Part shown: piece by piece, positions 2,677 through 53,070 of the stretch | Layout: each line of letters opens with the position of its first letter | Numbering within the stretch: position 1 is the stretch's first letter | Source of the DNA: an uncultured bacterium | GTDB lineage: Bacteria; Patescibacteriota; Doudnabacteria; UBA920 | DNA length: 64,000 nucleotides | NCBI GenBank assembly: GCA_963749445.1 | Contig: CAVVMJ010000005.1 | Span: 98,915 to 162,914, forward strand | Reading direction: 5' to 3' | Program-made: the position numbers and the translations under genes | The notes under the pieces: model-generated | The model's database searches: none | The model's input: only the letters and a program-made list of their open reading frames with translations | Told to the model about the DNA's origin: nothing

Positions 2677-3066
2677 ATGGCACAAAAGATAAATAAATTC
2701 ATTTATTGGACGCCAAGAATTCTGTCAATAATATTTATATGTTTTTTGGCGTTATTTTCGTTTGATGTGATTACTCCTGAATTAAGTTTTTGGCAGATAG
2801 CCGTTGGATTGTTTATGCACAATATCTCGGTATTTATTTTATTGGCTGCCCTGATAATATCCTGGAAACATGAGATTGTCGGAGGAATCGTTTTTATTTT
2901 AGCGGGATTACTGTACATTATTTTTGCGGTACAACGTGCGCCCGGATGGCATATGGTCTTGATTTGGAGCCTAATGATTGCCGGCCCCGCGTTTTTTATA
3001 GGAATTCTATTTATTATTAATTGGCGCAAAAAACGAAATAATCATAATGATGTTTCCGTAAAATAG
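2677..3066 (+). CDS. small integral membrane protein (about 4 TM helices); ORF track start 2545 is probably too far upstream
   Basis: Track ORF 2545..3066. Hydrophobic stretches ILSIIFICFLALFSF, ISVFILLAALIISW, IVFILAGLLYIIF and LIWSLMIAGPAFFIGILFII. A hairpin plus T-run at about 2566-2600 lies inside the 5' extension. Confidence 0.45.
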   Translation: MAQKINKFIYWTPRILSIIFICFLALFSFDVITPELSFWQIAVGLFMHNISVFILLAALIISWKHEIVGGIVFILAGLLYIIFAVQRAPGWHMVLIWSLMIAGPAFFIGILFIINWRKKRNNHNDVSVK

Positions 3067-3166
3067 GTTCTAATGCCGTCCACGATGCTGAAAGATTTGC
3101 CTAAGATAGTTATGCGGAATTGCGGGGATCAGGGGTAATCAAACTTCGTTAGTCCGCACCATGCCT

Positions 3167-3213
3167 TAGAAGCGCTTCGTTTGGTCCTATTCCACTCGAA
3201 GCGCTTCTTTTTT
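3167..3213 (+). terminator. rho-independent terminator after membrane-protein gene
   Basis: agaagcgcttcg ... cgaagcgcttct perfect 12-bp stem followed by TTTTTTGT. Confidence 0.6.
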
Positions 3214-3232
3214 GTAAACTTAAAATTTTTTG

Positions 3233-3275
3233 GCAAAACAAAAGCCGTTCGATGTCCGCGAGGATCACCGAACGG
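3233..3275 (-). terminator. rho-independent terminator for minus-strand gene 3332..4219
   Basis: On minus strand the stem GCCGTTCG...CGAACGGC is followed by TTTTGTTTTG. Confidence 0.5.
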
Positions 3276-3331
3276 CCTGTGGCTGCCAAAGCAGGCCACT
3301 AATGCGAGTCTGTGCGGGCAGGAGAAAGGTG

Positions 3332-4219
3332 TCATCTGGTTCTCGGTTTGTCGGAGAACCAGAACATATTGGGGATTGTCTGGCACTCTCCGTCCTCGAA
3401 ACAGAGCACCACATCAGCGGGATGCTGTGGACCGTTATAGTCCGGCCCCACCACCGCGTCTACGACGAACACCAGCTCGCCATCCTGGTTGGTGGTGACG
3501 GGTCCCTGTTGCCACCAGTACCAGGGGTTGCCCACAAATGTGTGAACAACTCTGTTAGGTGGAAGATTTCCTAACAGCTTGGCCGAAGAGGTAGTTTCGT
3601 TAATCGGGAAAGTCTGCACCCCCGACACAAAATGCAACCCTTTTCCGCTTGGCCCTGTCCGATTGAGGAAAACCCGCGAAACAAGAGGCTGCTGAAGCAG
3701 GCGTCCGCCTTCTGCGTCCACAATTGAGACTTCCACAACATACTCGCCGTACTTCTGGTTTCCGTACCGGTTGAACTGGTAGGACAAAAGCGTCACCAGT
3801 TCGAACCCACCAAAACCTCCCTTATAAAAACCCCAGGAACCGTTGTCTGGCTCGAAGTACAAAGGCTGGACGCTCCCGTCGTAATAGCCGTTGTCCCCGG
3901 GCAGCAAAACCTGCCCGTAAATTTGGGCGTTGATGGCAAGGCCGATGGTGCCTTGCACAAAGATCAGTCTCGGCACCATCGTGTCGCCAACCTCAAAGGC
4001 TTGTTTGCCGGTGTAGAGATACGCCAAGAAATGCGTGTCCGGCGCTGAAACGCCAGCTCCCCGCGCATTAATGCTGTAGGCGGGATGCGCGGTGTAAAAC
4101 TCCTGCGCACTTTGGCGACGAGGCCGGATCATGGGGTCCAACCTCGTTTGGGCGCTGACCAGCACGGCGGCGGCCAGCAGAATCGCGGCGAGCGCCGCTA
4201 GGAACTTTGCGTTCTTCAT
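3332..4219 (-). CDS. secreted hypothetical protein (signal peptide MKNAKFLAALAAILLAAAVLVSAQ)
   Basis: 295-aa ORF with N-terminal signal peptide. No recognisable catalytic motif. Confidence 0.55.
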   Translation of the reverse strand: MKNAKFLAALAAILLAAAVLVSAQTRLDPMIRPRRQSAQEFYTAHPAYSINARGAGVSAPDTHFLAYLYTGKQAFEVGDTMVPRLIFVQGTIGLAINAQIYGQVLLPGDNGYYDGSVQPLYFEPDNGSWGFYKGGFGGFELVTLLSYQFNRYGNQKYGEYVVEVSIVDAEGGRLLQQPLVSRVFLNRTGPSGKGLHFVSGVQTFPINETTSSAKLLGNLPPNRVVHTFVGNPWYWWQQGPVTTNQDGELVFVVDAVVGPDYNGPQHPADVVLCFEDGECQTIPNMFWFSDKPRTR

Positions 4220-14386: not shown

Positions 14387-14902
14387 TGTAGCGTGCCGAT
14401 TTATCGGCGTCTAAGTTATTTGTAGAATTGATCAAATTTAAGCAATAATTCTTGGGGATTATTTTGAATGTATTCCCGAATTTTAGTCAGGGCTTTTTCG
14501 TTTCTGACAACGTGTTCATAATAATTCGATTGCCAAAGATTTTGCCCGAAGGTATGGGAAACCTTGGCTTTAAATCTTCGGACGATCTCTCCCAGGTGCA
14601 ATTTGCAGTTGTGAAGGATGAAAATTATATGGATATGATTAGGCATAATCACAAAATAATCCAGTTCAATACCCGGGGTCTTAGATTGGAGGTCTTGCAA
14701 TTCGTTTTCCACTAGAATTTCATTATTTTGAAATAAGTTTTGCCTTAATTTGGCCACAGCGGTCACGAAGTAATATCCATCGGACGTATAATCATATTGT
14801 TTTAGACGAATGTTTTTTCTTCCGTCCATAGGATTGTCCTTCGACGCCGATAAATCGGCACGCTACATAGACCGGTGGGTGTAGCGTGCCCATTTATGGG
14901 CG
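14387..14902 (-). mobile_element. REP-RAYT unit inserted between purC and purB
   Basis: TGTAGCGTGCCGATTTATCGGCGTC at 14387-14411 and its exact reverse complement at 14843-14867 flank the Y1 transposase gene. A variant TGTAGCGTGCCCATTTATGGGCG lies at 14880-14902. Confidence 0.65.
14416..14829 (-). CDS. REP-associated tyrosine transposase (RAYT, IS200-like Y1 HUH transposase)
   Basis: HUH motif MPNHIHIIF. Catalytic-Tyr region NYYEHVVRNE. 137 aa. Confidence 0.75.
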   Translation of the reverse strand: MDGRKNIRLKQYDYTSDGYYFVTAVAKLRQNLFQNNEILVENELQDLQSKTPGIELDYFVIMPNHIHIIFILHNCKLHLGEIVRRFKAKVSHTFGQNLWQSNYYEHVVRNEKALTKIREYIQNNPQELLLKFDQFYK

Positions 14903-18195: not shown

Positions 18196-18244
18196 AAAAT
18201 TTTTCTACTAAATACTAAAGGGGCTAAATACGAAAAGTTCGACC

Positions 18245-20765: not shown

Positions 20766-22190
20766 TTAGAATAACGCGCCTTCCGGTTTTGTCTGCTGGT
20801 AGTTCGGTTCAACCACGTCTTTTTTTCGTTCGCAAATGTCTATGGGGTACTCGCCGGTAAAGCAGGAAGTGCAGAATAAGTCTTGGGGCAGCCCCGTGGA
20901 TTCTATTAATCCTTTTAAAGAAAGATAATATAAAGAAGTGGCGCCCAGGAATTTTTTAATTTCTTCCACGGATTTGGTGGCGGCTATGAGTTTTTTCTGC
21001 ACCGGCGTGTCGATGCCGTAAAAATCGGGAAATTTTACCGGCGGCGAGCTGACCAGAAAATGCACTTCGGAAGCCCCGGCCTCAAACAGCATCTTAACCA
21101 ATTGGCGCGAGGTGGTGCCTCGCACTATGGAATCATCCATCACCACAACTCTTTTGCCTTTTAAGACTTCAGGCAGGGGAGTAAGTTTTAGTTTTACGCC
21201 GAGGTCGCGGCTGTGCTGTTCGGGTTGAATGAACGTGCGGTGGATGTAGCGGTTTTTTACCAACGCCATTTCCATGGGGATGCCCGAGGCGCGGGAATAT
21301 CCGGAAGCCACGGGTACGGCGGTTTCCGGCACGGGCACGATTATATCGGCCTCTATCGGGCATTCTTCAAAAAGTTTCATTCCGCAGTTTTTGCGGACTT
21401 CGTAAACCGACTTGCCCAAAATGTTGCTGTCGGGCCGGGCAAAATAAACAAACTCAAAAATATCCACTTTGGTTTTACTCGGTTCTATTTGCGTTGATTG
21501 TAATCCATCCTTATCAATAATCACCATTTCCCCCGGGAGCACTTCGCGCAAATAATCAGCGCCGACTGTGTGGAAGGCGCAGGTTTCGGAAGCAATCACA
21601 TACCCCGATTTGTTGATGGTGCCTATAGCCAGCGGCCTTATGCCAAACGTGTCACGAACCGCTACTAAAGAATCCTTGGTTAAAATCGTCAAGGCAAAAG
21701 CTCCTGTGAACAGAGGGTAAGCCTTAATAACCGCTTCTTTGATGGATAATCCCTGTTCCAAATAGTAGGCTAAAGCTTTAGCCATAAGCGTGGAGTCGCT
21801 GCAATCGTCCGTCGCGATGTCTTTGCCTTCCAAAAAATCCTTTAGTTTTTTTACGGACGGCAAATTGCCGTTGTGCGCCAAGGCAATTAAATTATCGCCC
21901 GCCAAAATCGGCTGGGCGTGTTTAATATGCGAGCCCTCGGAAGTGGAGTAGCGGTTGTGCCCGATGGCAATGTGGCCTTTGAGGCTTGATATGGTTTCTT
22001 CGCTGTAAACATGAGTGACCAGCCCCATATTTTTGTAGCACTCAATATGGTTGCCGTCCGAGGTGGCAATGCCGGAGCTTTCCTGCCCGCGGTGCTGGAG
22101 CGCGAACAATCCGTAAAACGTCAACCTTGATACATCAAGATTCTTTCCGTAGATGCCAAAGACTCCACATTTTTCGTTAAGATTTTCCAT
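20766..22190 (-). CDS. purF: amidophosphoribosyltransferase (short N-terminal propeptide before Cys)
   Basis: KCGVFGIYG..., 474 aa. Confidence 0.9.
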   Translation of the reverse strand: MENLNEKCGVFGIYGKNLDVSRLTFYGLFALQHRGQESSGIATSDGNHIECYKNMGLVTHVYSEETISSLKGHIAIGHNRYSTSEGSHIKHAQPILAGDNLIALAHNGNLPSVKKLKDFLEGKDIATDDCSDSTLMAKALAYYLEQGLSIKEAVIKAYPLFTGAFALTILTKDSLVAVRDTFGIRPLAIGTINKSGYVIASETCAFHTVGADYLREVLPGEMVIIDKDGLQSTQIEPSKTKVDIFEFVYFARPDSNILGKSVYEVRKNCGMKLFEECPIEADIIVPVPETAVPVASGYSRASGIPMEMALVKNRYIHRTFIQPEQHSRDLGVKLKLTPLPEVLKGKRVVVMDDSIVRGTTSRQLVKMLFEAGASEVHFLVSSPPVKFPDFYGIDTPVQKKLIAATKSVEEIKKFLGATSLYYLSLKGLIESTGLPQDLFCTSCFTGEYPIDICERKKDVVEPNYQQTKPEGALF

Positions 22191-22554
22191 CTTGTAATTT
22201 TTTTTGTTTAACTTGTTCTCTTATCCAGCCTTCAGCCCACCGCAAATATTTTTCGTATTCGGTTTTGCGACTATAACGAGGCAGGTTTAGAGGGATATCC
22301 GCTCTAAAGTCTTGCGACCCTTCGTCCATTATTGAATCTTCTCCTTCCGGGGTTTCGTAGCTGATATGCGGATGGGGTTGCATGCGATAACCTACTTGCC
22401 AGCCTTCTCTCCAGCTTTCATCTTGTAAAGGATCCTTAGCGTACTCTTTGGGCATTTCCCAAGGTTCGTGACCGTTCAGCCCCGCAATAAAACCCTGATG
22501 ATAAATATCATCTAACTCAGCCTCTCTTCTCCCTAAGACTTCAAGTTCGGTCAT
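22177..22554 (-). CDS. hypothetical acidic Trp-rich protein occupying the slot between purQ and purF
   Basis: 125 aa. Overlaps the purF start by 14 nt. No PurS-like features. Confidence 0.4.
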   Translation of the reverse strand: MTELEVLGRREAELDDIYHQGFIAGLNGHEPWEMPKEYAKDPLQDESWREGWQVGYRMQPHPHISYETPEGEDSIMDEGSQDFRADIPLNLPRYSRKTEYEKYLRWAEGWIREQVKQKKLQDGKS

Positions 22555-23341: not shown

Positions 23342-23891
23342 GAAACTGTATTTACTAACTACTAATCCTTACTAATATACGAATGTGAATTTCTTGGAAT
23401 TAGTATATTAGTAATTAATTAGTAGTTAGTAAAGTTAGTAATCTTTAAACGTTGACCGGTACGCCCTTAATGCGTCCGCGATTTTTAAATTTACAATGAG
23501 TTTTTGATGTTTATCGGTGATTGTTAAAGTAGATTTGGTGGTGGTTTTGCCGATTTTTGCAAAAATATTTTTTCCGGCGGAGCCGGATCCCGCTCCGCGG
23601 GACATCAGGTTTTCAAAAATAGCGATGTTCTGCGACGCCACGCTGACCAAAATTCGCCCTTGGCTTTCGCTAAATAAAGCCTGATAATTTTCCTGCCAGG
23701 AGCCGGGTACATCGGCCAAGCTGATTTCTGCGCCAAGGCCGCCGCCCATAAGTTTTTTAGTTAGCGCTACAATCAGGCCGCCGCCGTTAACGCTTATGGC
23801 CGAGGCGATTAGGTTTTGTCGGTTGGCGTTGAATAAAGTTTTATATAATAAATAGTTTTTGGCGGCGTTGACTTTTGGAACTCCAACCACC

Positions 23892-23945
23892 CCGTCCGCC
23901 TTCGGCGTCCACCCCTCCTTAAAAAGGAGGGGAGACTGCATTCTG
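23892..23945. repeat. palindromic insertion element (family A: ACCACCCCGTCC...CCCCTCCTTAAAAAGGAGGGG) inside purL C-terminal region
   Basis: Encodes MQSPLLFKEGWTPKADGVV in frame. Confidence 0.65.
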
Positions 23946-26280: not shown

Positions 26281-26337
26281 GGGGCTTCCCCTCCTTTTTA
26301 AGGAGGGGTGTCCTGCGGAGCGGGACGGGGTGGTTGG
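26281..26337. repeat. family A element in opposite orientation inside purL N-terminal region
   Basis: Encodes TPTTPSRSAGHPSLKRRGSP in frame. ccccTCCTTTTTAAGGAgggg palindrome. Confidence 0.65.
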
Positions 26338-26757
26338 AGTATAAAAAGAAATAAAAAAGACCTGAGACGAATAAACATCCTGCCCCGGCTTGAATTTTAT
26401 TTTCGCCCCGTCTTGCAAAGTTTCTTTGGCCGTGCGGCCAATGTTGTCCGTGACCCCGGGCAGAAAACCGATTTCCACGGCAAAATTAAAATTCCGCGGC
26501 GCCTTTAAAGCGGTGTCCGCGGATTCTGCAAGAGGATTGGCCAACAGCGTTTTGGCTTTTTGGATTTGTTTTTGGTTTAGGCGCGCGTCAATCGTATAGC
26601 AGTCCGCCAGATACACCGCCCCCAGTTTGTTTTTTAGCCCCAGCGCCTCAAACTGCTTTTTTTTGACTTTGGCCCGGGCGTCGGGGATGGTGGACTTTAC
26701 GTAAATGCGATGCATTGAGAGATTTGAGATTTATGATTTTAGATTTCAGATTGGAAT

Positions 26758-37646: not shown

Positions 37647-39170
37647 ATGGGACTGCCGTCAAAAAAGCGCATAGTTGGGAATCAATGCGGGTCAATCATG
37701 ATCTTCAATATTTTGATTATTTTTATTTTTTCCACCGTGCTCATCGGCATTTTGAGCGTGGCCACTTCCCAGCTGCGACTTTTGCGCAGCAGCATCTACC
37801 GCGAGTCGGCATTTGACATCGCCGAAGCCGGGGTGAATTATTACCAGTGGCATTTGGCCCATTTTCAGACCGATTACGCCGACGGCAGCGGCCAGACCGG
37901 CTGCAACCCCTGCGGCCCCTATGTCCACAACTATACCGACACGGACAACGAAACCGTTATCGGCAAATTCAGCCTGATGATTACCCCGTCTTTGCTCGGC
38001 TCCACCATGGTGACCATCCAGTCCACGGGCTACACCCTGGCCGCCCCAGCTACCCGGCGCGTCCTGACCGTGCAGTACGGTATTCCCAGCCTGGCGCAGT
38101 ATTCGTTTTTAAGCAATTCCGACGCCTGGATCGGGGGCACGGAAGCGGTGCACGGCCAGTTCCGCAACAACGGCGGTTTGCGTTTTGACGGCACGGGCGA
38201 TTCCTGGATTTCTTCGGCTAAAAATAACATTCCGCCCGGGCCGGGCTACCAGTGCAGTCCGTTTTTCGGATGCTGCCCGGTGCTGACCAAGCCCGGCATT
38301 TGGGGATCCGCGCCGGGTTCTACCCAGTCATTTTGGCAGATGGGCCAGCCCAATTTCAACTTTACCGGCATTACCGCCGATTTGAACACTTTGGAAAATG
38401 ACGCCAAAGCCGGCGGGATTTATCTGGCCCCTTCCAATAGCCAGGGCGATTCGTTGGTGTTTAAAAACGACGGCACCCTGGATATTTATAAAGTCACTTC
38501 GCGCAAGGCCAATCCCACGGGGTATGACACCAATTGCAGCTACAGCGCCTCTTTATGCGCCAGTTCCTGCGGCAGCGCCTGCCTAAATTCCCTCCAGTGC
38601 GAGGCGCGCAACGACCAACTGGACTATAACGCCCGTACGTTCCAAAGCAATCAGGCTATCCCGGGCAACGGCGTCATTTACGTAGAAGATAATGCTTGGG
38701 TGGAGGGCACGGTCAAGGGCCGCGCGCTGGTGGTGGCGGCCAAGCTGGGCGCCGCTTTGTCTTCCATGCCCAACATCATGATTCCCAATAATATAGTCTA
38801 CAATGATTTAACCGCCAACAGCACGGACATTTTGGGCCTGCTGTCGCAAAAGGACATTGTTATTACCTACGCGGCGCCGCAGACTTTGACCATTGACGCG
38901 GCCCTGATCGCGCAAAACGGCGTGGCCAACTTTTTTGACTTCAGCGGCGGCTGCAGCAGCGTGGCCGCGGAAAAGACCACCCTGAACATTTTTGGCTCCA
39001 TGGCCAGTTACGGCATTTGGACCTGGACTTGGACCTGCGCCAACGGCAAATATTCCGGCTACCTCAACACCAACACCACTTACGACGGCCGGCTGCTGTA
39101 TTCGCCGCCGCCGGATTTTCCGGTTGACTCCGCCGCCGGTTACCAGCAATTAAATTGGAAGAGCAATTAA
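37647..39170 (+). CDS. PilX-like minor pilin / pilus-associated secreted protein (alternative start MIFNIL at 37698)
   Basis: Hydrophobic N-terminal helix IIFIFSTVLIGILSVATSQLRLL. 507 aa, Cys-rich. Confidence 0.45.
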   Translation: MGLPSKKRIVGNQCGSIMIFNILIIFIFSTVLIGILSVATSQLRLLRSSIYRESAFDIAEAGVNYYQWHLAHFQTDYADGSGQTGCNPCGPYVHNYTDTDNETVIGKFSLMITPSLLGSTMVTIQSTGYTLAAPATRRVLTVQYGIPSLAQYSFLSNSDAWIGGTEAVHGQFRNNGGLRFDGTGDSWISSAKNNIPPGPGYQCSPFFGCCPVLTKPGIWGSAPGSTQSFWQMGQPNFNFTGITADLNTLENDAKAGGIYLAPSNSQGDSLVFKNDGTLDIYKVTSRKANPTGYDTNCSYSASLCASSCGSACLNSLQCEARNDQLDYNARTFQSNQAIPGNGVIYVEDNAWVEGTVKGRALVVAAKLGAALSSMPNIMIPNNIVYNDLTANSTDILGLLSQKDIVITYAAPQTLTIDAALIAQNGVANFFDFSGGCSSVAAEKTTLNIFGSMASYGIWTWTWTCANGKYSGYLNTNTTYDGRLLYSPPPDFPVDSAAGYQQLNWKSN

Positions 39171-39371
39171 TTTAATTGACAAAATTGACATAATTGAGCA
39201 AAATTGAACATAATTTGATTTGGCAATTATGTCAATTATTCCCGCCTGCCTACGCCAATTATCAATCTCAGATAAATACTAACAATCAGCTGGCTAATCA
39301 ACATCATTAAAATATAACAAACGGCATCGGCGGGCAGGTAAATTATGGCAATTATGTCAATAATCCTTATG

Positions 39372-39782
39372 TTCAAAAAAACTTTTGCATTTTTGTCCAA
39401 GGCGTTGATAATATCGGCAATGTTTTTATTGCCGTTCGGCGTTTCGGCTATGATTTTGGTGCCCAAAGGAATGGTGCCGAATCCGCCGCCGCTGCAGCCG
39501 CATTCGCCTTTGGTCAAACCCAATATTTCCCAAAACGTCAATACGCCGCCCCAGCCAGCGCCGTACGGCCAGACTGCGACTTCGGCGTCCGCCTCCTTGC
39601 CGCCGCCTGCCACAACCAGCCAGTCAGCCGTTGCGCCGCCGCCCGATAATACGGTGGCCGCGGATGAGCAAAGCGCCGATACCACGGCTTTATGGGCCAA
39701 ACCCTGGTTGTGGGCGCTGGTTTTGGTTGTCGGAAGTTCGTTGGGGTATTGGCTGGTTATGAAGGATAGGGATAAGAATTAA
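39372..39782 (+). CDS. Pro-rich membrane-anchored hypothetical protein (track ORF start 39345 lies inside a repeat motif)
   Basis: MFKKTFAFLSKALIISAMFLLPFGVSA... C-terminal TM helix WLWALVLVVGSSLGYWLV. Confidence 0.4.
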   Translation, partial: FKKTFAFLSKALIISAMFLLPFGVSAMILVPKGMVPNPPPLQPHSPLVKPNISQNVNTPPQPAPYGQTATSASASLPPPATTSQSAVAPPPDNTVAADEQSADTTALWAKPWLWALVLVVGSSLGYWLVMKDRDKN

Positions 39783-39875
39783 ATCATTGACATAATTGCC
39801 ATAATTTAAATAATTGCCATAAATATTGGGCCTATTATTTATGTTCAATTATGTCAATTATGTCAATAACATCAT

Positions 39876-42771: not shown

Positions 42772-43764
42772 ATGAAAATTGTCTTTTACGAAACGCAAAA
42801 ATGGGAAGAAGAGTATTTAAAGGCAAAATTGTCGGGTTTTGACCTGTCTTTTAATATAGGCAGCAAAATTTTGCCTGATGCCGGCGCGGAGATTGTTTGT
42901 AATTTTGTGGGTTCGCCGCTTACTGGCGAAATTATCGGCAAAATGCCGCAGCTTAAGTTCGTGGCCACGCGCAGCACGGGTTATGATCACGTGGATTTAA
43001 AAGCCTGCAGCGAACGGGGGATTGTGGTGAGCAACGTGCCGACTTACGGCGAAAACACGGTGGCGGAATTTGCTTTTGCCCTGCTTTTGGCTTTGTCGCG
43101 AAAGATTTTTCCGGCAGTTAAGCGGGTGCGCGAACAAGGATTGTTTTTGACCGACAGTTTGCAGGGCTTTGATTTGCAGGGCAAAACCTTGGGCGTGGTG
43201 GGCGCCGGCCACATTGGGGTGTTCGTGATAAAAATCGCCAAGGGTTTTGGCATGAATGTTTTGGCTTATGACCCGCATCCCAAAGAGGAATTGGCGAACC
43301 AATATGGGTTTAAATACGCATCGTTGGAGGATTTATTAAAATCATCCGACGTCATTACTCTGCACGTGCCGTATATGCCGGCTACTCATCATTTAATTAA
43401 CGCGCAAAACATCGGCCTGTGCAAAAAAGGTGCCATTATCATTAACACGGCGCGCGGCGGACTAATAGAAACTTCGGCTTTGGTCAGCGCCTTAAAATCC
43501 GGACAAATTGCGGGCGCGGGTTTGGATGTTTTGGAAGAAGAAGGGTTTATTAAGGAAGAGGCCGATTTGCTGATAAACGGGCATCCGAATTTGGAAGAGT
43601 TAAAAATCGCCCTGGCCGACCACGAGCTGATGTATATGGATAACGTTTTAATTACGCCCCATAACGCTTTTAACACCAAAGAAGCTTTGCAAAGAATTTT
43701 AGATACGACTATAATGAATATAGAGGGGTTTGCAAAGGGGCAGCCGATTAATTTGGTTAAATAA
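42772..43764 (+). CDS. D-isomer-specific 2-hydroxyacid dehydrogenase (glycerate DH / hydroxypyruvate reductase-like)
   Basis: GKTLGVVGAGHIGVFV. Pairs functionally with the upstream glycerate kinase. Confidence 0.8.
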   Translation: MKIVFYETQKWEEEYLKAKLSGFDLSFNIGSKILPDAGAEIVCNFVGSPLTGEIIGKMPQLKFVATRSTGYDHVDLKACSERGIVVSNVPTYGENTVAEFAFALLLALSRKIFPAVKRVREQGLFLTDSLQGFDLQGKTLGVVGAGHIGVFVIKIAKGFGMNVLAYDPHPKEELANQYGFKYASLEDLLKSSDVITLHVPYMPATHHLINAQNIGLCKKGAIIINTARGGLIETSALVSALKSGQIAGAGLDVLEEEGFIKEEADLLINGHPNLEELKIALADHELMYMDNVLITPHNAFNTKEALQRILDTTIMNIEGFAKGQPINLVK

Positions 43765-43775
43765 CATTTACCTCT

Positions 43776-44259
43776 CCTACGAACTTACGAACATTTCGAA
43801 CTACGAACTGACCCGTTATGCCAATAAAACCAAAGATAAGGAAACAAGATTTATTATATCCTGACTTATCGTATGAAATTATTGGCGCGTTGCTTGCGGT
43901 ATACAAAGCTTTGGGGCCGGGACTCCCGGAAAAAGTTTACCAAAGAGCGGTCGCGGAGGAATTAAGGAGAAGAGGGATAAAGTTCCAAGAGCAGGTTCCG
44001 GTAAAAATAATTTACGAGGGCATTCCTATAGGAATTTATTATGCCGATTTCGTCATTGAAGATAAAATTGTTTTGGAATTAAAAACTTACAGATTTTTTA
44101 GCAGAAAAAATATTGACCAAACAGTCGGTTACTTAAAAAGTTTAAAATTACAGCTCGGTATGCTAGCCAATTTTACCAGAAATGGTTTGGAATATAAAAG
44201 AATAATTAATCTTACGTAAGAAGCCGGTTCGTAGTTCGTAACTTTCGTAAGTTCGTAGG
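43776..44259 (+). mobile_element. GxxExxY gene cassette bounded by about 36-bp imperfect inverted repeats
   Basis: Left: CCTACGAACTTACGAACATTTCGAACTACGAACTGACC. Right: CCGGTTCGTAGTTCGTAACTTTCGTAAGTTCGTAGGA, which is the reverse complement with a few mismatches. Confidence 0.5.
43818..44219 (+). CDS. GxxExxY family protein
   Basis: GPGLPEKVYQRAV fits G-x-x-E-x-x-Y. 133 aa. Confidence 0.7.
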   Translation: MPIKPKIRKQDLLYPDLSYEIIGALLAVYKALGPGLPEKVYQRAVAEELRRRGIKFQEQVPVKIIYEGIPIGIYYADFVIEDKIVLELKTYRFFSRKNIDQTVGYLKSLKLQLGMLANFTRNGLEYKRIINLT

Positions 44260-44268
44260 ATCATCAAT

Positions 44269-46480
44269 ATGAAACCAAAACCGCCCGGCAGACGCCATAC
44301 GCCTCACTTACATCATCAAACTAAAATTAACCAAACCATTATGGATAAGGTCAAAATCAAAAGGGTAAAAAGGGATAAAAAGAAAGCCACAACAAAAGAA
44401 AAGATTTTGGCCGGTTTGGGCGTGGGCGGAACCCTGATGGGCGGCATTGCGGGAATGCAGGCTAAACCCAGCGCGCAGACGAAACTTGTCAGCATCACCG
44501 GCACCGAGCAGTCCAGCGGCACTTCCAAAATTAAATCCGCAATAAAAAAGCTTTTTGGCGCGACCATTGGAGCGCAGACGGCCAAGGCGGAAGAAAATAC
44601 CACCACAACCCGCACAGTTACAGATCCGGATACTGGTCAAATTACCACTTATTACGACACCACTATTAATGGTATGCCTGTAACGGTTGACCAAAACGGC
44701 ACTACCTGGATAAATCAGGGCAACGGAGCCGAGCAGGTTGACCCGCAGGATTACGGCATAGATCCCAATGCCATACAAACGCAGGCTACCACGTCGTCAG
44801 ATACTTCCGGAACCTCCGGCACAAGCGGCACATCTGGCACATCAGGGACTTCTGGTGACGATGGTTCAAGCGGCACTTCCGGTACATTTCCGGGACTTCT
44901 GGCACATCAGGTGACGGTGGCGGTACAGCGGTGACATGGCGACAGTGGTGACAGCACCACTAATACCGGCCCCACCCTAACCGGCGCGCCAACCTTAAAC
45001 TCCAGCGGCACGGGCATTGATGTGTCCGGTTTGGCATCTAGTGGCGGCAGCAGCGGCATCAGCATTGACGACAGCCAGGTTAACTACAATGTTCCCGGCA
45101 CCTACACCGTAACCATCAACGCTTACGACAGTTCCGGCAACCTGACTTCCCAGACATACCAGGTCACAGTTCCGGCTACATCTGGAACCGCGGTACATCT
45201 GGGACTTCTGGTGAACTCTGGCACTTCCGGTAGTAGCGACGCCACTAATACTGGCCCCACCCTAACCGGCGCACCAACCCTAAACTCTAGTGGCACGGGT
45301 ATTGATGTCTCCGGTTTGGCATCTAGTGGCGGCGGCAGCGGCATCAGCATTGACGACAGCCAGGTTAACTACAATGTTCCCGGCACCTATACCGTAACCA
45401 TCAACGCTTATGACAGTTCCGGCAACCTGACTTCCCAGTCATACCAAGTCACAGTTCCGGCTACCTCAGGTACATCAGGTACCATCTGGAACCAGTCGGC
45501 ACTTCTGGTACATCCGGTACTTCTGGTGCCACAACCGGCCCCACCTTAACCGGTTTGCCAACCCTAAATTCCACTGGCACGGGCATTAACGTGTCCGGCT
45601 TGACGTCCTCGGGTGGCAGCGACAATATCAGCATTGACGACAGCCAGGTTAACTACAATGCTCCCGGCACCTATACCGTAACCATCAACGCTTACGACAG
45701 TTCCGGCAACCTGACTTCCCAGACTTATCAGATAACAATTCCGGCTACCTCAGGTACCTCTGGCACATCAGGGACATCCGGAACCAGTGGCACAAGTGGC
45801 ACTTCCGGCACTCTGGAACCAGCGGAACCTCTGTCGATTTAGGAGCCCCTGTTTCCGGCTCTATACCATCCCGACTCCAACAATTCTTACAGCTGGACAG
45901 CCTCGACTGCCACCATTGGCGGCCAGCAATACACTAACCTAAACCTTTCCGCCCTGTCGGACGGCCGGATTATTGCCTACATTAACCGGCTGGCACGGAC
46001 GTGACTTCAGGTTTACACCTTGCGGCATGACCGGGACTTTATATTCCGCCTATAAGTGCTAGCTCCGGAGCCTGGTACCTCCGGCACTATCAGGGACTTC
46101 GGGTACATCGGGCACATCATGTACATTCGGTACTACTGGAACTTCAGGTCATCTGTCATCTCAGGCACTCGTCGCCGTCCGCCACAACCGGCAACGTACC
46201 ACCCGTGGTTACATTGAACAACGGCGTGTATACGGCTTCGGTGACTATCAACGGGCAAACCTATACGGCTACAGGATCCACTTTGGGCGATTTGAACAGT
46301 AATATGCAAAAGTACAATAATCTTACCGGCAATAACCAGCAAGTTTTTGCGGCTTTGGCTCAGGCTTCCGACGCCTACGCGTTGAAGCAATATAACGCGA
46401 CGCAAGCGGGTAAAACCCCGGGCAACGGCGCGCCAATTGATATATCCACCGCTTCCGTGTACGGCTCCGATGAGTTATGA
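44269..46480 (+). pseudogene. large surface protein gene with three tandem ~95-aa Ig-like repeats separated by (SGT)n linkers; reading frame broken at the linker microsatellites
   Basis: Track ORFs 44269..44934, 45022..45549, 45555..45842 and 46205..46480 each encode the same unit TGPTLTGAPTLNSSGTGIDVSGLASSGGSSGISIDDSQVNYNVPGTYTVTINAYDSSGNLTSQTYQVTVPATSGTSGT, in different frames. Confidence 0.5.
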
Positions 46481-51304: not shown

Positions 51305-51469
51305 TGTGTATTTTTTCGTTACTAATTTCGTTTTTGAAATTAGTTTTATTTTTATCGCAATCGGTAAATTATGAATGCCTTATAAACACTAGCGTTCATC
51401 GATAATTTTAACGTTTAGCGAACGAATTTACCAACCAAAATGGTTAACAGTCCCGATCTGTTGCGTTTG

Positions 51470-51575
51470 CGCGTACGTACGCGTATATTAAACAAATGAT
51501 ATTTTAGCGAAAAGCTGTTTCCGGATAAATTGTAAATTTGTTGCATTTATTCGTACGTACGAATAAATGCAACAA
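51470..51575. promoter_or_regulatory. palindromes CGCGTACGTACGCG (51470-51483) and the 38-bp perfect palindrome TTGTTGCATTTATTCGTAC|GTACGAATAAATGCAACAA (51538-51575)
   Basis: Read directly. A related 20-bp palindrome ATACGCGTACGTACGCGTAT lies at 52155-52174 on the other side of gene 51593..52126. Confidence 0.5.
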
Positions 51576-51592
51576 AGCCCGCGGTAAATAAT

Positions 51593-52126
51593 TCAGCCTG
51601 ACCCGGTGAGTTTAAAGTGTTTCAACAAATCCTTGTCGTCGTCCAACTCCTCCAGCCTGCCTATGCGGATATAATCAATCAGTCCTGTACTTTTCAGGTA
51701 CGTTATCGCCTCGCGGTTCAGCGGGTAAGGGGTCAGGTAGACGCTGGCCTGGAGTTTGAAGAATTCACCGGATTTTAGCAGCCTTCTGAGTTTGTCGCGC
51801 TTGTCGTTGGCATCGCGGGGGATATCAAACATAATCATCCGCCATTTGCCGTCCCACGTTTGTTTTTTGGGCAGCCATGCTTTGGCCATAAGCAGTTCCA
51901 GCTGGCCTTTGCGGGTCAAGCGCAAAAATTTTTGTCCCGCCGCGGTTTTTGTGATGTTTACATAGCCTTTGCGGCGGAGCCTGTAGGCGGTTTGGCGGTA
52001 TTGTTCGTAAGTGCCCGGCTGGCGTTTTTGCTCCCATTGCCGTTTGGATGAAAAAATGGACGTGAAGCCGTCTACAAAGGCAAATAACAGAAAACTTTGG
52101 GGATAGTGTCTTAAACTTCGCGGCAT
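51593..52126 (-). CDS. hypothetical protein, wHTH-like N-terminal half plus Cas2/PaaX-C-like C-terminal half
   Basis: RQTAYRLRRKGYVNITKTAAGQKFLRLTRKGQLEL. C-terminal WRMIMFDIPRDANDKRDKLRRLLKSGEFFKLQASVYLTPYP fits the strand-DIP-basic helix-strand pattern of Cas2/PaaX C-domains. Confidence 0.4.
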   Translation of the reverse strand: MPRSLRHYPQSFLLFAFVDGFTSIFSSKRQWEQKRQPGTYEQYRQTAYRLRRKGYVNITKTAAGQKFLRLTRKGQLELLMAKAWLPKKQTWDGKWRMIMFDIPRDANDKRDKLRRLLKSGEFFKLQASVYLTPYPLNREAITYLKSTGLIDYIRIGRLEELDDDKDLLKHFKLTGSG

Positions 52127-52371
52127 ATTTTTTGATTTATCCTATGTGTTTAATATACGCGTACGTACGCGTATTGTCAACAGATTATGTTTGGTGGAAA
52201 GCGCGGTTTTTGATTTTTGATGTGGCAACAGTTGTTTAGTTTATGCGTACGTGCGTGTAAACGCAACAAGGGAAAGCGATTGATAAAACATTCCTGATTT
52301 TGACGGCCGTCAAAATCAGGAATGTAATAAAAATCGAGAATGAAATCGGGAAATCTTGCCTGTCGGCGGAA

Positions 52372-52941
52372 TCAGGAAAAACCGGCGGGCGGGATTTTTT
52401 TTAGCGGGAGCCGATGCCGTTTTAAAACGATTAAGCACAGCAGGAAAAGGCCGGCGAAAAAGAAGACGGCGGCAATTGAGTGGCCTGTTAAGTTTTGATC
52501 GGAAGGGGGCGGCAAAATGACAGTCAGCGGGATTTTGACTCCGGCGGCCACGGCCAGATTTTTTTTATCCAGCGGCCGCGCCAAAACATCCAGGGACGTA
52601 ACAAAAGGCGCGCCGGCCCGATTTTGGATTTCGGCGGACAGGCGTTTGGCGTCCACGCGGATGCTGACAGTTTTCCGGCCGCCCGGCCCCAAAGCAAAAT
52701 CATTCGGTTCAACGGTGATGGCGCTGGGGAAGTCTGGGGCGTAAATCTGGAAAGTTTGCGCGTCGGCTGTCGGGTTGGCCACTGTCAGCTGCCCCGTTGT
52801 CTGAGCCGGCGCCTGTAAATCCAGTTTGCTGGGGGAAACCCCGATGCCGGAAGCAAGGGCGGTTGGAGCCATAAATGGCATTAGATATATTACGATGGCG
52901 ATTAGTGTCTTTTTAATCATGTTTTTTGGCCATAATGCCAA
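52372..52941 (-). CDS. cell-surface protein with signal peptide and C-terminal TM anchor
   Basis: MIKKTLIAIVIYLMPFMAPTALA... C-terminal AAVFFFAGLFLLCLIVLKRHR. Confidence 0.4.
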   Translation of the reverse strand: MALWPKNMIKKTLIAIVIYLMPFMAPTALASGIGVSPSKLDLQAPAQTTGQLTVANPTADAQTFQIYAPDFPSAITVEPNDFALGPGGRKTVSIRVDAKRLSAEIQNRAGAPFVTSLDVLARPLDKKNLAVAAGVKIPLTVILPPPSDQNLTGHSIAAVFFFAGLFLLCLIVLKRHRLPLKKIPPAGFS

Positions 52942-53070
52942 ATATCAAATTCCAAATTTCAAATGAATGCCAAATGGCCAATTGCCAAGATCAAATTTGC
53001 CGCAGTTTTTGAAATTTGGCATTTAAGAATTGGGATTTTATTTGAAATTTGATATTTGTAATTTGAAATT

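Follow-up and report, generated by a model that had tools for sequence, protein, structure and literature searches.

We propose, with a probability of about 0.6, that the 486-bp feature described here is a mobile "hairpin cassette" of minimal design, consisting of one PD-(D/E)XK gene placed between inverted arms of 34 nt. It was found in a 64-kb stretch of bacterial DNA, referred to below as the window. That arms and gene form a discrete, occasionally mobile cassette living inside operons is secure. No prior description of the arms or of their mobility was found in the full-text literature searched, and GxxExxY or PDDEXK_3 proteins received only passing mentions there, none of them with biochemical data (subscription journals lie outside this coverage). 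The function of the family has been given as "unknown" (PMC3424549). The cassette and its neighbors are:

43775..44260, + strand: whole cassette, 486 bp; outer boundary taken from base covariation across loci
43775..43808, + strand: left arm, TCC and four heptamer words, with the non-pairing centre CATTT
43818..44219, + strand: GxxExxY / PDDEXK_3 gene, 133 aa; identified by profile matches, alignment and model
44227..44260, + strand: right arm, GTTCGTA GTTCGTA ACTT TCGTAA GTTCGTA GGA, the reverse complement of the left arm
42772..43764, + strand: upstream host gene, D-isomer 2-hydroxyacid dehydrogenase; outside the element, left anchor for the occupied/empty comparison
44269..44934, + strand: downstream host gene, N-terminus MKPKPPGRRHTPHLHHQTK; outside the element, right anchor for the occupied/empty comparison

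The two arms (34 nt each, separated by 418 nt) were delimited by an inverted-repeat search and are complementary at 31 of 34 positions (91%). With up to three mismatches allowed, the arm pattern occurred twice in 64 kb and was matched by 0/100 shuffles. The original prediction of a GxxExxY gene bounded by inverted repeats was thus confirmed, the encoded protein matching both PF13366 and TIGR04256. The same prediction gave the repeat as 36 bp and near-perfect; the inverted repeat stood, but each arm is 34 nt long, contains four heptamers and has a mismatched centre. The left-arm words TACGAAC, TACGAAC, TTCGAAC, and TACGAAC begin at 43778, 43786, 43795, and 43802 (start-to-start spacing 8, 9, 7). 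As read from the sequences, the arm design is one of three variable, mutually complementary bases plus four TACGAAC words, with a centre that does not pair. The three mismatches between the arms cluster centrally, so that the stem would comprise about 17 bp, an internal loop, and about 12 bp. In the predicted fold of the transcript 43765-44268 the arms pair as the closing stem (MFE -136.6 kcal/mol, z -4.95, 0/100 shuffles). The left arm starts 10 nt past the dehydrogenase stop codon (43762-43764) and ends 9 nt before the GxxExxY ATG; the right arm starts 7 nt past the GxxExxY stop, and 8 nt separate its end from the downstream ATG. No second GxxExxY copy is present within the 64-kb window, and Rfam and tRNA scans of the window gave no matches.

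The arm sequence had also been described as the only one of its type in the window. This holds for the exact sequence; in kind it does not, as three further features are built from related words:

23353..23440, no strand assigned: gene-less hairpin of the sister word TACTAA, purL-purQ; 4-5 words per arm, 16-nt loop
20675..20761, no strand assigned: gene-less hairpin of TACTAA/TACGAA words, between purN and purF
18205..18236, no strand assigned: single TACTAA-word arm, adjoining purD

The hairpin at purL-purQ has a DNA fold of -20.4 kcal/mol (z -7.6). Same-word gene-less hairpins with loops of 7-27 nt were also detected at other loci (L007, L008, L009, L002). Gene-less hairpins occupy stop-to-start positions, as the cassettes do. 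Several other gene-sized inverted-repeat pairs, made of different words, are present within the window.

The 133-aa protein matches PF13366 PDDEXK_3 (8e-33, 113.7 bits vs the curated cut-off of 22) and TIGR04256 GxxExxY (1.8e-34, 118.5 bits vs the curated cut-off of 35). In an alignment of 65 homologs the predicted catalytic residues D77, E87, and K89 (D77...E87-x-K89) are invariant, together with G33, E38, and Y41. The AF2 model (pLDDT 93) contains a confident PD-(D/E)XK core, and the best Foldseek matches are Cas4 SSO0001, lambda exonuclease, tRNA-splicing endonuclease, and Hjc, at a TM of about 0.5. Judged by alignment and model, the protein is a predicted nuclease of the PD-(D/E)XK type belonging to the GxxExxY family. 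A sequence search returned no solved structure of a related sequence. PDDEXK_3 is the sole family match of the protein, and no recognised transposase family was matched. A defence-system or phage-protein identity was considered and dropped, as neither PADLOC nor PHROGs gave a match to the 133-aa protein. The GxxExxY family is large (12,909 cluster representatives at E ≤ 1e-3). Many of its members are about 260-275 aa long and carry two GxxExxY domains in tandem (e.g., P0240, P0247, and P0250); such proteins may be fused adjacent cassettes.

The arms were compared across close homologs (83%, 78%, and 78% aa identity) and 80 further metagenome loci (46-67% identity). The loci of relatives were searched with alignment A2, alignment A1 being too diverse. 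In the close homologs the right arm is identical at 32-34 of 34 positions and the left arm at 29-30 of 34. The gene itself has pN values of 0.08-0.13 against these homologs, with synonymous sites saturated (pS 0.75-0.85). The low pN, the saturated pS, and the near-identical right arm together indicate strong purifying selection on the protein and on the arms alike. The exact arm sequence was found at only five loci in three genomes in a genome-wide search, and the window's own genome is not among them. For each gene, 150 nt were taken from both sides, and the arm score was that of the best inverted repeat without gaps between the two flanks, relative to shuffles. By this measure inverted arms clearly exceed shuffles at 59 of 81 GxxExxY genes. 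The same scoring was applied to 759 control ORFs (80-260 aa) from these loci; most scored 5-8, and scores of at least 15 were almost confined to GxxExxY genes. The words are TACGAA(A/T/C) in almost all loci, with TACTAA and TACGGA as variants, and the usual arm has four words with a start-to-start spacing of about 8, 10, and 8. Two members outside Patescibacteria, one from a Flavobacterium and one from a 2.3-Mb contig, likewise have inverted arms, in which the heptamer words are C(A/G)CAGAT.

Pairing between the arms was evaluated in 32 non-redundant loci. Agreement per word position is high (T.96, A.96, C.98, G.82, A.98, A 1.00), and position 4 varies between G and T without compensation. The central spacer, which lies between words 2 and 3, matches between the arms at only 38% of positions, and its sense-strand sequence tends towards T in either arm (26 vs 9). 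Given the uncompensated G/T at position 4 and the 38%-matched spacer, the stem is not conserved over its full length. Sense-strand G·U mismatches were not in excess in these loci (6 vs 10). The idea that a G·U bias might prove an RNA stem was therefore dropped, and pairing of the arms at the RNA level is something we infer. The three bases beyond the outermost word are complementary between arms in 100/83/67% of cases, vs 82/39/26% for shuffled partners (0/1000). CG, GC, AT, and TA pairs all occur at these positions, and past the third base complementarity is at background level. This pattern fixes the outer boundary of the element and represents real covariation at the base of the stem. Word variants are uniform within a locus (0.85 vs 0.63 when permuted, 0/500), and the word type is common to the nearest neighbor of the protein in 61 of 69 cases, vs 0.48 by chance. 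Across the compared loci, the word variant was thereby shown to travel with the protein lineage.

The cassettes were shown to lie in the sense orientation and to be inserted exactly at the boundary of two operon genes, after the stop codon of the first and before the start codon of the second. The downstream neighbor is co-directional in 73/73 cases and the upstream neighbor in 68/73, vs 210/254 for control adjacent pairs. Across loci, 2-6 nt separate the upstream stop from the arm that follows, and 2-9 nt separate the other arm from the next ATG. The gaps between the gene and its neighbors, typically about 35-45 nt, correspond to the length of an arm. They hold just the arm and leave no space for a promoter or terminator of the cassette's own. 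A Shine-Dalgarno-like motif was found before none of 62 GxxExxY genes. The possibility that GTAGGA of the right arm serves as a Shine-Dalgarno site for the next gene was rejected, given that such 4-mers precede 13/51 post-arm genes vs 7/29 host genes. Recurrent junctions are pilB-pilC, pilC-pilin, rpsG-fusA, purQ-purF, and a PrgI-like cluster, together with sites upstream of secA, rpoB, and clpB.

The junction occupied in the window exists in several states in related genomes. The cassette is intact in the window, L002, and L003, whereas in L091-L094 it is decayed with the arms still present. In L100 the junction is empty: a spacer of 19 nt lies between TAA and the start codon (ATG) of the downstream ortholog. 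In L090, whose dehydrogenase is 95% identical to that of the window, the site is instead filled by a 121-aa PF05635 (23S_rRNA_IVP) gene in arms of TTGACATAA words. Comparison of these relatives showed that one site can be occupied, empty, decayed, or swapped. L095 and L102 were dropped as candidate empty sites because their synteny is broken.

The cassette is also present at unrelated junctions. TACGAAC cassettes lie at purQ-purF in L004 and L006, the L004 copy having 78% aa identity and an identical right arm. L062 is related to L065 and L067 (92% nt identity in pilB, 89% in pilC). L065 and L067 carry a cassette at pilB-pilC; at that position in L062 there is nothing but an ATGA overlap of stop and start. 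The L062 cassette sits at pilC-pilin instead and is 93% identical to that of L065/L067. Homology between the two begins and ends at the arm tips. Over the whole set, proteins are not grouped by context: on average they have an identity of 0.59 to others from the same context and 0.56 to those from different ones, and in 16/50 cases the closest protein comes from the same context. These comparisons support the original prediction, which held that gene and repeats move as a unit, expected such repeats, nearly all with TACGAA words as it turned out, at other GxxExxY loci, and looked for empty sites in relatives, of which L100 and the pilB-pilC junction of L062 are examples. They show that the arms and the gene together make up the unit that is inherited and moved. 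A consistent target-site duplication was not found across the compared loci; AT is compatible with one in a recent pair (L066), and the others are not. At the window junction, the cassette gene and its neighbor show similar divergence (78% vs 74% aa, L003), so that movement must be rare. In the window, the purQ-purF junction (22177-22554), a cassette site in L004 and L006, holds a 125-aa ORF that has no Pfam match and no arms.

A scheme of how the cassette might persist in operons can be drawn from these data. The gene would be transcribed by read-through from the host operon. In the read-through transcript, or in single-stranded DNA, the arms would pair and close the insert as a stem-loop. 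By analogy with the folding of intervening sequences (IVS) of 23S rRNA before RNase III cutting, such a structure could limit the harm done to the operon. The heptamer words may be the recognition sites of the putative nuclease, and in this way may aid the spread or retention of the element. Gene-less hairpins would be non-autonomous, MITE-like derivatives.

The main rival reading takes the arms to be the vehicle. REP-, Correia-, or MITE-like hairpins would be moved in trans, for example by a Y1/RAYT transposase, and the GxxExxY gene would be lodged in them as cargo. Gene-less hairpins are indeed common, and the window contains a RAYT-like Y1_Tnp gene with REP-like repeats of its own. The tips of the cassette arms carry CTAC/GTAG, which is a hallmark of REP sequences. 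Arms can also hold other cargo. In L005 (3033-3485), TACGAAC arms at purQ-purF enclose an unrelated Cys-rich ORF of 71 aa (3075-3290, - strand); the same genome also has a decayed cassette at the dehydrogenase junction (L091). Arms of other words bracket the 23S_rRNA_IVP genes of L014, L088, and L090 and also a GIY-YIG ORF in L079 (4712-4993), where they form a 20-nt perfect inverted repeat. Non-nuclease cargo in like arms, such as the L005 ORF and the 23S_rRNA_IVP genes, makes the nuclease a possible passenger. Movement of the hairpins in trans is nevertheless considered unlikely, since GxxExxY genes are found with TACGAA-type words across 46-100% aa identity, the choice of word variant tracks the protein tree (61/69), and purifying selection acts strongly on the protein and its catalytic residues. 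Moreover, the arms are arrays of direct words and not self-palindromic REPs.

A free-standing homing endonuclease gene, which would cut the empty junction and be copied in through recombination of the flanking genes while the arms insulate it at the RNA level only, is rather improbable. It would account for a predicted nuclease gene lying between conserved genes (rpsG-fusA, pilB-pilC, purQ-purF, and others), for occupied, empty, and replaced states of one site, and for a GIY-YIG gene with the same layout. It leaves the conserved word sequence and the gene-less hairpins unexplained, and it conflicts with near-identical cassettes at different junctions, with homology that stops at the arm tips and not in the flanks, and with proteins that do not cluster by site. 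Very improbable is a non-mobile, vertically inherited host gene with a long-range stem for the processing of operon mRNA or for translational coupling. The shared site in the window, L002, and L003, the divergence similar to that of the neighbors, the strong purifying selection, and the predicted stem would all fit such a gene. However, the cassette occurs at many unrelated junctions, and the window junction itself has empty, decayed, and replaced states. The comparison of L062 with L065/L067 and the empty site in L100 largely refute a fixed gene.

The mobile hairpin cassette that we favor resembles several known systems, the closest of them being the 23S rRNA IVS of Coxiella, Leptospira, Salmonella, and others. 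The Coxiella IVS has a length of 428-444 nt and a stem of 28-bp terminal inverted repeats that is cut by RNase III; 3-4 tandem heptamers directly precede the ATG of a small ORF located in the loop and prone to decay (PMC4990558). The origin and mobility of rRNA IVS have been debated since about 1990 (PMC4990558). The size (486 nt here vs 428-444 nt), the enclosing stem of terminal inverted repeats (about 28 bp in IVS), the heptamers before ATG, and a small loop ORF that tends to decay and has no good ribosome-binding site are common to both. In addition, the ORF family typical of IVS, PF05635, fills the window's site in the 95%-related L090. Unlike IVS, the window element lies between protein genes of an operon and outside 23S rRNA, its flanks being protein-coding without any Rfam match. 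Its ORF is a PD-(D/E)XK predicted nuclease, whereas the IVS protein is a four-helix bundle. RNase III cutting is known for IVS, and the stem of the cassette is a prediction. In contrast, mobility of the cassette is backed by presence/absence and change of site, and that of IVS is a proposal. Based on the shared architecture and on the PF05635 gene at the same site in L090, we read the window element as an IVS-type element in a protein operon.

The other comparisons are with elements of protein-coding regions. MITEs with their autonomous partners, and the Correia elements of Neisseria, have shared terminal inverted repeats, gene-less copies, and hairpins in mRNAs. The cassettes likewise have terminal inverted repeats, gene-less and gene-bearing copies with the same ends, and positions in transcribed intergenic regions. 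As with transposons with terminal inverted repeats and MITEs, insertion polymorphism and copies at different sites were found. Unlike these elements, the cassette encodes neither a DDE nor any other recognised transposase, and a clear target duplication is lacking; its ends are arrays of heptamer words, and the gene-bearing unit is below 500 bp. REP/REPIN-RAYT systems also consist of one small gene bracketed by inverted copies of a repeat that is found elsewhere as dispersed intergenic hairpin doublets, and the GTAG/CTAC of the arm tips is a further likeness. They differ in having an HUH Y1 transposase in place of a PD-(D/E)XK protein, and palindromic REPs in place of direct word arrays. Free-standing homing endonuclease genes are known from the "intronless homing" of T-even phages, and PD-(D/E)XK homing enzymes exist (e.g., I-Ssp6803I). 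Such genes, like the cassette gene, are small nuclease genes that are variably present between conserved genes, but the inverted word arms move with the cassette gene and copies lie at non-homologous junctions. Integron cassettes share a promoterless, sense-oriented ORF and an imperfect inverted repeat that can form a hairpin. They have one attC where the element here has two arms around the ORF; an integrase, attI, and an array are lacking in the latter, and GxxExxY insertions are dispersed among ordinary operons. The cassette is best filed as an IVS- or MITE-like hairpin element.

A wider generalization is put forward tentatively; we regard it as less likely than not, with a chance that is still substantial. 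GxxExxY cassettes of about 470-490 bp could represent an unrecognised class of minimal autonomous elements, in which a nuclease of about 130 aa reads the words of the arms, moves the unit into stop/start junctions, and leaves gene-less hairpins behind. The classic 23S rRNA IVS would then be elements of the same kind that had landed in rRNA, and their origin would be explained. Should the heptamer words indeed be read by the nuclease, the enzyme would be both compact and sequence-specific, and its target would be defined. The identification of the cassette gives a genomic identity to GxxExxY, a very large family without an assigned function: its genes are carried by, and perhaps drive, a tiny mobile cassette bounded by hairpin arms. 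Many odd "stuttering" hairpins between the genes of Patescibacteria operons are thereby explained. The link to rRNA IVS provides natural occupied, empty, decayed, and swapped alleles for testing the origin and mobility of IVS.

Several variants of the arm layout were noted among the GxxExxY loci. At L049 and L054 (573-1141) polarity is reversed, with TTCGTA words upstream and TACGAA-type words downstream of the gene, and the locus adjoins a gene-less hairpin and a doubled arm of eight words. L045 (2228-4562) contains three tandem GxxExxY genes interleaved with genes of a PrgI cluster; their arms differ per gene, with TACGGA words, TACGAA words, and a third, weaker variant. The C(A/G)CAGAT heptamers in the arms at L096 (2806-3406) and L099 (2895-3449) resemble GACAGAT, the heptamer that in the Coxiella IVS has been reported to precede the S23p ORF. 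A small GIY-YIG nuclease ORF is present nearby at L065 (about 3040-3150), and bracketing of this kind may also be found around other small nuclease genes.

Other repeats of the window belong to different word families. A Y1_Tnp gene (IS200-like, RAYT-like) encoding 137 aa is located between purB and purC (14416-14829, - strand). It is bracketed by 29-nt inverted repeats that start with GTAG (14387-14415 / 14839-14867, 97% complementary), and an extra copy of the flanking repeat forms a hairpin at 14845-14902. The whole segment (14387-14902) looks like a REP-RAYT unit. Hairpins of TTGACATAA-type words (39170-39230 and 39786-39870) and an arm (39339-39364) surround a Pro-rich ORF of 145 aa; the word family of this segment (39170-39872) is common to the arms of the 23S_rRNA_IVP cassette in L090. 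A 177-aa PaaX_M-like gene (51593-52126, - strand) is bracketed by 40-42-nt inverted repeats with CGTACGTACG cores, located at 51456-51497, 52144-52185, and 52229-52268, with a palindrome at 51537-51576. A gene-less hairpin at 52934-53070, between two convergent or adjacent genes, has arms of 55 nt made of CCAAAT/TCAAAT-type words and a loop of 27 nt. GC-rich palindromic segments with CCACCCCTCCTTAAAAAGGAGGGGAG were detected at 23872-23933 and 26287-26348 (also at 3702-3721), as inverted copies in two purL ORFs and apparently in frame. A similar low-complexity insert is present in purD. These segments recall in-frame insertions of palindromic elements.
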